IMG/VR virus record: IMGVR_UViG_3300030708_002673
Span: 1 to 64,000 of that record
Strand: one strand, 5' to 3'
Length of the DNA: 64,000 bases
Source of the DNA: a virus
Taxonomy: Duplodnaviria; Caudoviricetes
Positions within the stretch are counted from its first letter, which is position 1. The number at the start of each line of letters is the position of its first letter. Under the pieces are notes generated by a model. That model saw only the letters and a list, made by a program, of their open reading frames with translations. It was not told the origin of the DNA and ran no database searches. Shown in pieces: positions 17,255 to 26,986 of this stretch. A program made the position numbers and the translations under genes.

Positions 17255-17278
17255 ACACGTTACAAAATGTAATGAACA

Positions 17279-17392
17279 CCCCGCAAACCGAGACCTCTAG
17301 GGTGTCTAAAGCACGTCTCTCATACCTCACCTGGAGGGTAGGTGAGGAATATTTTTTCAGTGTTCCCCGCACTATTACATAACCCTTTTTCA
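17279..17392 (+). ncRNA. Structured psbA 5' leader, probably PhotoRC-II-type motif
   Basis: GAGAC(17290-94)/GTCTC(17315-19) stem enclosing a GTGT/GCAC hairpin, then CCTCACCT(17325-32)/AGGTGAGG(17340-47); family name from recall only. Confidence 0.6.
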
Positions 17393-24905: not shown

Positions 24906-25355
24906 ATGGCAAAACTTCCTAACAATCCACTGGTCTCCGAACTGTTCAAAGCAGTGCACGGTGCTAAGACTGTGGATAAGAAGGTTGAACTACTGGAATC
25001 TCATAAACGGGATGACGTAAAGGCAATCCTTATCTGGAACTTTGATAAGGGTATCAAGTCTGCCATCCCTGAGGGTGACGTTCCTTACAAGAAGAACGAA
25101 TCACCTGCTGGTACTGATGGACACACCCGTCTGGTGCATGAGTGGCGGTCACTGTATAACTTTATCCGTGGCGGCAACGATAAGATCTCTCAGATGCGTC
25201 GGGAGACCCTGCTGATTCAACTGTTGGAGTCACTCCATGCTGATGAGGCAGAGATTGTTACCCTGGTCAAGGATGGTGAACTGCAAAGCAAGTATCGCAT
25301 CACTCGTAGTGTTGTAGAGAAAGCATACCCAGAGATCCACTGGCGTGATAAGTGA
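24906..25355 (+). CDS. Conserved T4-like cyanophage protein (DUF6433-like)
   Basis: LVSELF..V..AKT, ILIWNFD, PEGDVPY, LLESLHADEAE. Confidence 0.75.
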   Translation: MAKLPNNPLVSELFKAVHGAKTVDKKVELLESHKRDDVKAILIWNFDKGIKSAIPEGDVPYKKNESPAGTDGHTRLVHEWRSLYNFIRGGNDKISQMRRETLLIQLLESLHADEAEIVTLVKDGELQSKYRITRSVVEKAYPEIHWRDK

Positions 25356-26464
25356 AGTTTCTCATTGATCTAACAGATCATTGCAACTCCAAGTGTCCTC
25401 TGTGTGCCAGACATAAGACATCATATAACGATGAGGTTGCGGTGCTCGCACCCGATCCATCAATGAACCTGTCAAAGATTTCACTTGAACAGTGGAAGAC
25501 ATGGTTCCCACAAGAGACCCTTGAGAAGACAGAGTTGATCTACTTCCAAGGGTCTTTTGGTGAGCCAACATTATGTGATGATCTGCTTGAGATATATGCC
25601 TACACCCTGAAGTCCAACCCCAACATCGTCTTCCAGATGAGTACCAATGGTGGTACCCGTGACGATGCATTCTGGGGAAGACTTGGTGCTCTCATGGGAG
25701 CATCACACAAAGATAGTTTCCTCATCTTTTCTATTGATGGTCTAGAAGATACCCTGCAGCAATACCGTGTGGGTGTGGACTATAAGAAGGTGATGCAGAG
25801 TGCTAAAGCATTCATCAAGGCAGGTGGTCCTGCTGTGTGGAGGATGCTGGTCTTCAAGCACAACCAACATCAGATACAAAGATGTAAAACATTGAGCAAA
25901 CTATGGAAGTTCAAAGACTTCCAACACACTCGTGTCAATGATATGTATGACGCTAGTGGACGTGGAGACGGTAAGTTTACGTATTCCTACAGGGATAAGG
26001 TGCACACCCTGCAGGTAGCAGATGATCCCAACCAAACGTACCGTCCAGACCCTGTAGCAGAGGACTCAGAGGTCGTGTGTCGCTATGGTCATACCAAAGG
26101 TAGTCCTGGGCAACTGAGGATCGATAGTAGGGGTGTGGTGCACGCCTGCTGCTTCCACCAGTCACGTCTCAGGTTCTTCTACCCTGGATATTATATTGAC
26201 AATAACCCTGATGCACCTGCGGTCTTCCGTGACATCAACAACCCGAACAAGGGAGTGGGTGCAGAGTATATGCAGAAGGTCTTCTGGGACAACGTGATTC
26301 CCTTGATTGAGGAGCAGGGTGGTATCAAATCCATCTCCTTAGAGCACCACTCATTACATGATGTGTTGCAGACTCCCTTTTTCCAACATACTCTGGTAGA
26401 ATCGTGGAGTAATAGACCGCACATCTGTGCAGACTATTGCGGTAAGAAAAGATGTATCCGTTGA
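25352..26464 (+). CDS. Radical SAM protein with C-terminal Cys cluster (SPASM/twitch-like)
   Basis: CNSKCPLC (CxxxCxxC), FQGSFGEP, STNGG, SIDGL, ACC, ICADYCG. Confidence 0.9.
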   Translation: MKFLIDLTDHCNSKCPLCARHKTSYNDEVAVLAPDPSMNLSKISLEQWKTWFPQETLEKTELIYFQGSFGEPTLCDDLLEIYAYTLKSNPNIVFQMSTNGGTRDDAFWGRLGALMGASHKDSFLIFSIDGLEDTLQQYRVGVDYKKVMQSAKAFIKAGGPAVWRMLVFKHNQHQIQRCKTLSKLWKFKDFQHTRVNDMYDASGRGDGKFTYSYRDKVHTLQVADDPNQTYRPDPVAEDSEVVCRYGHTKGSPGQLRIDSRGVVHACCFHQSRLRFFYPGYYIDNNPDAPAVFRDINNPNKGVGAEYMQKVFWDNVIPLIEEQGGIKSISLEHHSLHDVLQTPFFQHTLVESWSNRPHICADYCGKKRCIR

Positions 26465-26468
26465 TACA
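26453..26468. promoter_or_regulatory. NtcA-binding palindrome overlapping a -35 box
   Basis: TGTA-TCCGTTGA-TACA fits TGTA-N8-TACA, with 6-bp arms TGTATC/GATACA. Confidence 0.7.
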
Positions 26469-26488
26469 GTTTTCCTTTTCTATATAAT
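26461..26488 (+). promoter_or_regulatory. Sigma70 promoter of the riboswitch unit
   Basis: TTGATA(26461-66)-N16-TATAAT(26483-88). Confidence 0.75.
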
Positions 26489-26503: not shown

Positions 26504-26724
26504 CGTTCATCCCTTCGGGGACGCAAGTAAGTCGCGGAACGGAGCGTTCATCCCATGATTGATCTTCTTCTCTACACGGGCATGCTTTGCACTGACGCTG
26601 AGGACATAATCCGACGTGCCAGTACACATGATGCCATTAGTGCAGCAGTTCAAGCTGAGGTGGTAGCGACCGTAAAGGAAGCAACGCCTGAGTGCAATTG
26701 GGACGCAAACGACTGAAGGAACGG
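26504..26724 (+). ncRNA. Doubled glutamine riboswitch (glnA/Downstream-peptide type) with an ORF inside a loop
   Basis: P1 CGUUC/GAACG, P2 UCCC-UUCG-GGGA, CGCA, E-loop AGUA...GAA, P3 AGUCG(26530-34)/CGACU(26710-14); second CGUUCA-UCCCA...UGGGA-CGCA core inside. Confidence 0.85.
26555..26716 (+). CDS. 53-aa peptide encoded within the riboswitch loop
   Basis: GGAG at 26541-44; MIDLLLYTGMLCTDAEDIIRRASTHDAISAAVQAEVVATVKEATPECNWDAND*. Confidence 0.7.
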   Translation: MIDLLLYTGMLCTDAEDIIRRASTHDAISAAVQAEVVATVKEATPECNWDAND

Positions 26725-26756
26725 GGCAAAAATCCCATTCTTTTAGGAGACCTACC

Positions 26757-26947: not shown

Positions 26948-26975
26948 AAGGGAAGGTTTGACACCTTCCCTTTTC
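26948..26975 (+). terminator. Rho-independent terminator closing the riboswitch unit
   Basis: AAGGGAAGGT-TTGAC-ACCTTCCCTT then TTC. Confidence 0.85.
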
Positions 26976-26986
26976 TGTTTTATAAT
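26958..26986 (+). promoter_or_regulatory. Consensus sigma70 promoter of the thyX operon
   Basis: TTGACA(26958-63)-N17-TATAAT(26981-86); -35 lies in the terminator loop. Confidence 0.85.

Follow-up and report, generated by a model that had tools for sequence, protein, structure and literature searches.

The locus considered here raises the question of how a protein gene can lie inside a metabolite-sensing RNA, with its start and stop codons among the nucleotides of the sensor, and of whether the phage makes use of this arrangement. The window, by which we mean the whole stretch of 64,000 nucleotides that was analysed, is part of a T4-like cyanophage genome, and the record from which it was taken is an 82-kb fragment with one glutamine-riboswitch match in its entire length. 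An earlier note on this DNA had described a peptide (ORF-B in what follows) whose ribosome-binding site, start and stop codons were all aptamer nucleotides, and had suggested that translation and ligand binding would compete, that this could set the expression of the downstream YRG gene, and that the peptide might also act as a protein. The positions that it gave for the GGAG, the AUG and the stop codon were all borne out by the sequence, and the features of the locus are collected in Table 1.

Table 1. Features of the riboswitch locus, in window coordinates.
Feature	Position	Strand	Remarks
Sigma-70-type promoter of the unit (predicted)	26461..26488	+	-35 TTGATA, 16-nt spacer, -10 TATAAT; 11/12 in a consensus scan
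Outer core, P1 5′ strand CGUUC	26504..26508	+	Pairs with 26719-26723; fifth pair C-G/U-A
Outer core, P2 hairpin UCCC-UUCG-GGGA	26510..26521	+	3/4 pairs changed on both sides
Outer core, ACGCA third strand and AGUA E-loop half	26521..26529	+	AGUA at 26526-29; invariant in 67 sequences; aligns to the Rfam Glutamine consensus
P3, 5′ strand AGUCG	26530..26534	+	Pairs with 26710-26714 across the gene; common to both cores; covariation
Inner core, P1-like hairpin GAACG-GAG-CGUUC	26537..26549	+	Stem covariation; GGAG at 26541-44 is a possible Shine-Dalgarno of ORF-B
Inner core, P2 5′ strand UCCC and start-codon A	26551..26555	+	Pairs with 26699-26703; 100% paired in 67 sequences
ORF-B, embedded gene	26555..26716	+	53 codons and UGA; phrog_504 / T4-GC_430
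Inner core, P2 3′ strand UGGGA (Trp49 codon and first Asp50 bases) and CGCAAA strand	26699..26709	+	Invariant at all codon positions
P3 3′ strand CGACU, E-loop GAAG and outer P1 3′ strand GAACG	26710..26723	+	UGA at 26714-16; same bases in relatives L058 and L070
Expression platform	26713..26746	+	26713-21 with 26738-46 and 26723-26 with 26733-36; MFE fold
Shine-Dalgarno AGGAG of the downstream gene	26745..26749	+	Conserved before the start in relatives
Downstream YRG gene, 54 codons	26757..26921	+	phrog_545, PHROG E 3e-31; IF17-like
Intrinsic terminator closing the unit	26948..26982	+	10-pair stem, then a U-rich tail

At 60-99% identity, the riboswitch region aligns with 426 records of phages of Synechococcus and Prochlorococcus, and the unit is carried by isolates such as S-BM1, S-SM1 and S-ShM2. 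The sole Rfam family scoring above threshold in the window is the PhotoRC-II RNA (17264-17360, 75.3 bits). A TATAAT box stands upstream of the first core strand at an equal distance in the relatives and, as predicted from these signals and those of Table 1, the riboswitch heads a self-contained phage transcription unit made up of promoter, riboswitch, ORF-B, IF17-like gene and terminator.

An ORF of 370 codons lies upstream of the unit (25352-26464). It has at its start a C-x3-C-x2-C motif of the kind usual in radical SAM enzymes, and it ends with a stop codon within the promoter region of the unit. A perfect GTA-N8-TAC palindrome resembling an NtcA box (26454-26467) overlaps both the last codons of this ORF and the -35 hexamer of the unit promoter, and the 15 nt from the end of the palindrome to the -10 box are a tighter spacing than is usual for NtcA activation. 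At the other end of the unit (26948-26986), the terminator loop contains a perfect TTGACA that is the -35 of the next promoter (TATAAT at 26981-86; 12/12 match), so that the terminator and the next promoter overlap. When 185,579 species genomes were scanned for the junction motif, 63 matches were obtained, about the chance number by our own estimate, and the full unit was found in just 4 of these genomes, on phage-like contigs in all 4. Because the junction pattern is phage-specific, this cellular scan says little about host riboswitches.

The pairing supported below is that of two nested glutamine-type cores. Its predicted helices make the outer core a three-way junction of the canonical glutamine-I form, in which a single A (26509) precedes P2, as in glutamine-I, and in which P3 encloses the inner core and the gene. 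On the same grounds, the inner core is circularly permuted and has P3 in common with the outer core; its P1 is capped by a loop of 3-4 nt, and its P2 loop is ORF-B. Two bases link the P3 5′ strand to the inner hairpin, and a single A links this hairpin to P2.

Whether the cores are nested or stand side by side as two independent aptamers was evaluated by covariation in an alignment of 67 sequences. This alignment was enriched for variants by a targeted scan, and its counts are of sequences or loci and not of independent compensatory events. It was found that 99.1% of cells were paired under the nested structure. Four pairs of the outer P1 were invariant; the fifth was C-G in 59 sequences and U-A in 8 and was never broken, and the inner hairpin pair next to the single A was G-C in 41 and C-G in 26, with none unpaired, whereas in the side-by-side pairing the same two P1 pairs were broken in 41 and 42 of the 67 sequences. 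The targeted scan collected loci whose first GAACG starts with a base other than G, of which 105 could be parsed; all 105 loci with CAACG carried CGUUG opposite, and the loops that join the two strands are of at least 9 different sequences. Where the last GAACG was changed, the change was compensated in the first CGUUC in 10/10 loci.

The remaining helices behaved in the same way. P3 was paired in 99.4% of cells (67 sequences), and three loci carry an AGACU:AGUCU variant with three pairs altered on both sides; wobble variants were seen as well. In the fully paired inner P2, C-to-U changes are retained as G-U wobbles, the fourth pair is U-A in four relatives (L065, L095, L096 and L113), and in several relatives the helix stretches to 7-10 pairs and takes in the whole AUG. 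The contiguous inner P2 helix had a mean of 5.67 pairs, compared to 5.36 with shuffled partners, and 0 of 2000 shuffles were as high. Unconstrained RNAalifold gave exactly the five nested helices.

The side-by-side tandem is rejected by this covariation. It is the placement chosen by the Rfam Glutamine model on the window (26502-45), at 28.9 bits against a threshold of 35; the model cannot span the stretch of about 175 nt that P3 encloses in the window. On the compact relative L058, with an insert of 40 nt in P3, the same model finds the nested outer core at 37.8 bits. A Glutamine-II aptamer (RF01704), in which CGUUC would form a pseudoknot with GGAACG in a 3′ hairpin loop, scored 25.9 bits against 33 and was likewise rejected, since the covariation supports the nested helices.

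ORF-B has the properties of a protein gene. It matches phrog_504, a phage family to which no function is assigned, over residues 1-53 on profile positions 1-53 (E 3.1e-22), and it is annotated as a CDS for a hypothetical protein in phage records, with the note T4-GC_430 in that of S-BM1. Among 45 distinct relatives of 53 codons, dN/dS (Nei-Gojobori) was 0.29-0.32 with dS near 1.1, and the entropies at the three codon positions over codons 2-47 were 0.87/0.49/1.24, the third position being the most variable and the second the least. The 126 distinct ORF-B sequences range from 52 to 64 codons, all in frame, and their lengths differ by whole codons alone. Cys12, Cys47 and nine further residues (11 in total) were invariant in 34 sequences.

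The earlier note had named frameshifts in homologs and a dN/dS near 1 as signs that would speak against a translated protein. No frameshifts were found and dN/dS was about 0.3, and therefore ORF-B is a protein gene; a non-coding ORF-B is rejected by this dN/dS together with the codon-position pattern. From the way in which these sequences have evolved, we are highly confident that ORF-B is a genuine protein-coding gene, and this confidence applies to the coding and structural statements taken together. AlphaFold predicted a two-helix hairpin for the product (pLDDT 74.8), and a Foldseek search of this model against the PDB gave no match at E <= 0.001; no Pfam domain was matched in the protein. 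Its matches in a large protein database were to 'hypothetical' clusters only, of 52-54 residues plus one of 73, and those in the Atlas were to unnamed viral clusters only.

The boundaries of this gene are written in sensor bases. The AUG (26555-57) directly abuts the 4-nt P2 strand UCCC (26551-54), and its A pairs with U26699, a pairing with the U of the Trp49 codon that is present in 67/67 sequences. There is no spacer between the P2 strand and the AUG in 123/126 distinct ORF-B sequences, and the stop codon is at the same core position in 126/126. At its end, the gene reads W-D-A-N-D-UGA, and the UGA (26714-16) consists of the last P3 base (U26714) and the GA of the E-loop GAAG (26715-18). 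Over codons 49-53 the entropies in the 45 relatives were 0.09/0.03/0.06, i.e., near-invariant at all three positions. The 113 relatives that were parsed have the same 5′ half of the core before the ORF start and the same 3′ half over the ORF end; therefore, the overlap is far beyond chance. The helices obtained from covariation and RNAalifold thus confirm what the earlier note had read from the sequence alone, namely a start in the P2 5′ strand, a W-D-A-N-D-stop in the 3′ half of the aptamer and a UGA at the junction of P3 and the E-loop.

The same tail bases, including the UGA, are present in the compact relatives L058 and L070, in which there is no gene and the hairpin is a plain tetraloop. 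Because these bases exist without the gene, the aptamer sequence is the older of the two, with the gene reading into it until the first in-frame stop. The stop codon varies among loci: in 12 of them UGA is replaced by UAA, which turns the E-loop GAAG into AAAG, and in others it is replaced by CCA or CGA, and the ORF extends five codons to a UAA in the next hairpin loop.

The GGAG that had been proposed as the Shine-Dalgarno of ORF-B (26541-44) is indeed made up of the last G of the GAACG strand (26537-41) and the GAG loop of the GAACG/CGUUC hairpin (26537-49). This loop was GAG or GAGC in 103/113 loci of the unbiased sets. It was GUUC, GAA, GAAC, GAU or others in 44/142 unique units, which hence lack the GGAG, and the conserved trait of the loop is a length of 3-4 nt with G as the first base. 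The position of the GGAG therefore holds, but it is not a conserved Shine-Dalgarno, and an essential role as such is not supported.

Downstream of ORF-B, the YRG protein matched Pfam DUF4278 at 22.5 bits (E 1.5e-4; cut-off 25.3), and more than 584 relatives of its gene were found in viral contigs. The platform strand 26713-21 runs from the last part of P3 through the E-loop into outer P1, and it contains the UGA of ORF-B. The platform helix competes with P3, the E-loop and outer P1, and it covers the first two bases of the YRG Shine-Dalgarno. This helix was present in the MFE fold of 112/115 distinct platforms, and a UAA-type strand always had the matching U opposite. Constrained folds gave -77.3 kcal/mol for the platform, -67.6 for the nested and -65.1 for the side-by-side structure, tertiary and ligand terms being excluded, so that the platform state lies about 10 kcal/mol below the nested fold in nearest-neighbour energies without those terms. 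The inner hairpin and inner P2 are compatible with the platform fold, which is the OFF, ligand-free state, and therefore burial of the ORF-B start need not depend on glutamine. Many relatives have a structured insert of about 30 nt in the platform hairpin (L001 ~1722-1765; L058 ~645-690), in which conserved flanks, ACGGAUCC and GAGAAGGUU, surround a small hairpin with a covarying stem; the window has the short form.

Because the start, last codons and stop of ORF-B coincide with core strands, translation and sensor folding are mutually exclusive by geometry, as judged from the predicted helices. A ribosome at the first few or the last ten codons, or at the stop, would cover P2, the inner ACGCA strand, P3, the E-loop and the outer P1 strand, and neither core should form while a ribosome is initiating, finishing or terminating on ORF-B. 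The folded inner core would in turn bury the ORF-B start and hinder initiation. When the aptamer is not folded, the switching strand would pair with the tract before the YRG Shine-Dalgarno; glutamine would stabilise the nested fold and free the downstream ribosome-binding site, which would make the unit an ON switch as at gifB. Ribosomes on ORF-B would be expected to keep both sensors open, and a ribosome terminating at the UGA could open the platform helix transiently, by which the two genes would be coupled. Repression of ORF-B by the folded state and coupling to the downstream gene are thus what we infer from the arrangement of the strands. Such coupling could not be a general rule, because the stops of two other loop genes, ORF-A and ORF-C, precede the ACGCA strand and leave the terminating ribosome short of the platform strand.

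Of the competition between ribosome and aptamer proposed earlier, the mutual exclusion is upheld by this geometry, and its use in regulation would be a further step, which we judge to be somewhat more probable than its opposite. Similarly, for the proposal that translation of the ORF could set YRG expression, the stop codon does lie in a strand that alternates between the aptamer and the helix masking the ribosome-binding site, and the coupling itself may follow from this. A reading in which the gene is a passenger of the RNA accounts about as well for the gene-free relatives and for the various other families found in these loops.

Among 113 units, the loop contents were compact+B in 66, A+B in 44, compact+compact in 2 and A+compact in 1, and of the 80 loci retrieved solely via the downstream gene, 77 have a gene-bearing inner loop. 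ORF-A (phrog_6471, 66 codons) occupies the outer P2 loop of 38/142 unique units. Examples are L012:765-962, L005, L070 and L083; the stop codon of ORF-A is part of the P2 3′ strand, and in L006 and L007 the P2 strands around it are changed on both sides. These loops also house at least three further gene families, whose boundaries are identical, the inner slot holding B, C, D or D′ and the outer slot A. The inner-loop families that replace ORF-B have 57-64 codons (L065:58-249, L095:434-616, L096:446-616, L174:2258-2443), and some of them end in the RNA-dictated D-A-N-D tail, others at a UAG inside the P2 strand. The distance between start codon and P2 strand is 0-4 nt across families, with the gene taking up the entire loop, and all loop proteins have a hydrophobic N-terminus and two conserved Cys. 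Comparison of loop-protein profiles gave P 0.005 for B-D, with a score that comes partly from the RNA-dictated tail, P 0.0015 for D-A and nothing for B-A, which is at most suggestive of a common ancestry.

Other arrangements were also observed. In L094 (~290-650), a single core surrounds about 340 nt that hold two ORFs. L017, L019 and L101 have lost the outer 5′ half, which leaves the gene-bearing core on its own, and the upstream gene ends 1 nt before the inner CGUUC (CGUUG in L101). In L049:408-460, L072, L173 and others, the outer P2 carries, in place of a tetraloop or a gene, a conserved non-coding extension of about 45 nt that forms a long irregular hairpin.

The compact L058 and L070 show that the switch does not need a gene, and the loops may simply tolerate long insertions, with ORF-B merely expressed from the riboswitch transcript. 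The invariant core halves would then serve as homology arms for the exchange of small-gene cassettes between co-infecting phages; overlap with the core would result from compaction and from read-through to the first in-frame stop, and interference between ribosome and fold would be a tolerated side effect. This account agrees with the existence of all four loop combinations with and without genes, with the B, C, D, D′ and A families sharing identical boundaries, with the two ORFs in the single core of L094, and with a UGA that is present without any gene and a stop that can shift five codons downstream. It is less easily reconciled with start codons held within 0-4 nt of the P2 strand across families in genes that fill the entire loop, with the P2 helices of 7-10 pairs that include the full AUG in several relatives, or with the large majority of gene-bearing loci (77/80). 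The N-terminus and the two Cys common to all loop proteins may also hint, if faintly, at a related function and not at random cargo. On balance, we consider the gene as passenger to be a serious but rather unlikely explanation.

The regulatory use of the competition could go further than described above, with the unit acting as a logic device that has two outputs and takes glutamine and ribosome traffic as joint inputs. At high glutamine, the inner permuted core would turn the loop gene off and the outer core would turn the IF17-like gene on; ribosomes on the loop gene would veto or reset both sensors by occupying the shared strands; and the loops would be exchangeable slots for small two-cysteine proteins wanted in the opposite nitrogen state. 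As a whole, this proposal is speculative and we think it doubtful.

Regulation by glutamine presupposes that the cores still sense it. In the solved glutamine aptamers, the ligand is contacted by two pairs, C1:G and G2:C, and by the ACGCA G (PMC6698751). Both cores have all of these bases, which are invariant across 67-140 relatives. By analogy, the ACGCA G may be equated with the ligand-contacting G of the solved aptamers, and each core may bind glutamine. Alternatively, the core halves could have ceased to be glutamine sensors and be kept for translational coupling, for RNA stability or processing, or for protein binding. The Rfam scores of the window below threshold would agree with such a loss, as would three traits of the inner core: it has no E-loop, its P1 loop sits directly over the pair equivalent to a ligand-contacting pair, and flipping of its P1 pair leaves the ACGCA strand unchanged. 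However, every base that contacts glutamine in the solved structures is invariant in both cores, the compact L058 passes the Rfam threshold, and the downstream gene is IF17-like, the kind controlled by glutamine riboswitches in cyanobacteria, and we regard a loss of sensing as improbable. Finally, that ORF-B is untranslated and conserved as a structured RNA loop is very improbable, since, although the SD-like GGAG is not universal, the third codon position is the most variable, dN/dS is about 0.3, lengths change by whole codons, Cys12, Cys47 and other residues are invariant, and RNAalifold on the alignment of relatives found no conserved pairing inside the ORF, such as might join the P2 strands.

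ORFs in folded RNAs are known from other settings. In the Mg2+-sensing leader of Salmonella mgtA, which contains mgtL, and in attenuation leaders with their leader peptides, the position of the ribosome on the leader ORF decides the fold of the RNA; these ORFs are very short and act via regulatory codons, and the sequence of the peptide is mostly unimportant. ORF-B is likewise embedded in a ligand-sensing leader, but it has 53 residues, all of its length is subject to purifying selection, and it takes up a hairpin loop of the aptamer. An attenuation-type uORF is ruled out by the 53 codons, the dN/dS of about 0.3 and the 11 residues invariant in 34 sequences. Group I introns of T4-like phages are ribozymes that carry homing endonuclease genes in peripheral loops, and the ends of these ORFs can overlap the core. 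There, too, a complete ORF can loop out of one helix of an RNA that still folds and functions, whereas the RNA of the window is predicted to be a metabolite sensor, and its cargo consists of tiny proteins to which no function is assigned.

Among glutamine riboswitches, the closest comparison is with glutamine-I (RF01739), such as the leader of Synechocystis gifB, a proposed ON switch with a DUF4278 (IF17-like) gene downstream (PMC6212724). The outer core of the window has the CGUUC:GAACG P1, the single A, P2, the ACGCA-type strand, the AGUA/GAAG E-loop and P3 of this class; the next gene is small and DUF4278-like by a match below the cut-off; and the ribosome-binding site is hidden by an alternative helix, which is what one would expect of a translational ON switch. 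It differs in that P3 encloses about 175 nt made up of a second, permuted core and an entire gene, in that the E-loop and P3 elements are met in the window only when paired across the gene, and in that the host of the riboswitch is a phage.

Tandem glutamine riboswitches have been described (PMC9481103; Weinberg 2010, PMC2864571) as adjacent, independent units with pseudo-cooperative control, and 157 doublets have been catalogued (PMC9481103). The window shares with them the presence of two glutamine-type cores in one leader, but here the cores are nested with a shared P3, and the covariation rejects the side-by-side arrangement. Glutamine-II has been crystallised as a dimer with a swapped pseudoknot helix, and a two-piece aptamer works (PMC6698751), which makes the connectivity of nested and permuted cores physically plausible. 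In that case also, a CGUUC:GAACG helix between separately connected parts still builds a glutamine site; it is an in vitro or crystal arrangement of a pseudoknot aptamer, whereas the topology found here is natural, conserved and of the glutamine-I type. The literature mentions glutamine riboswitches in T4-like cyanophages and tandem arrangements, and our search of it, which covered the key papers in part, brought up no account of nested glutamine cores or of a glutamine aptamer that contains a gene.

Riboswitch aptamers are seen as compact domains without coding content, and glutamine riboswitches in tandem as neighbours that act independently. The locus described here is a natural sensor of two nested cores, present in hundreds of ocean cyanophages, in which one hairpin encloses a protein gene whose C-terminus is dictated by the bases of the sensor. 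Because scans with covariance models miss or mis-pair the nested form, counts of phage riboswitches are likely to be too low. The unit comprises about 480 nt and is small enough for direct reporter and probing work. If it is functional, a single short RNA would tie the sensing of a metabolite to the translation of one gene and to the unmasking of the gene after it, and the unit bears on how cyanophages read the nitrogen status of their hosts.
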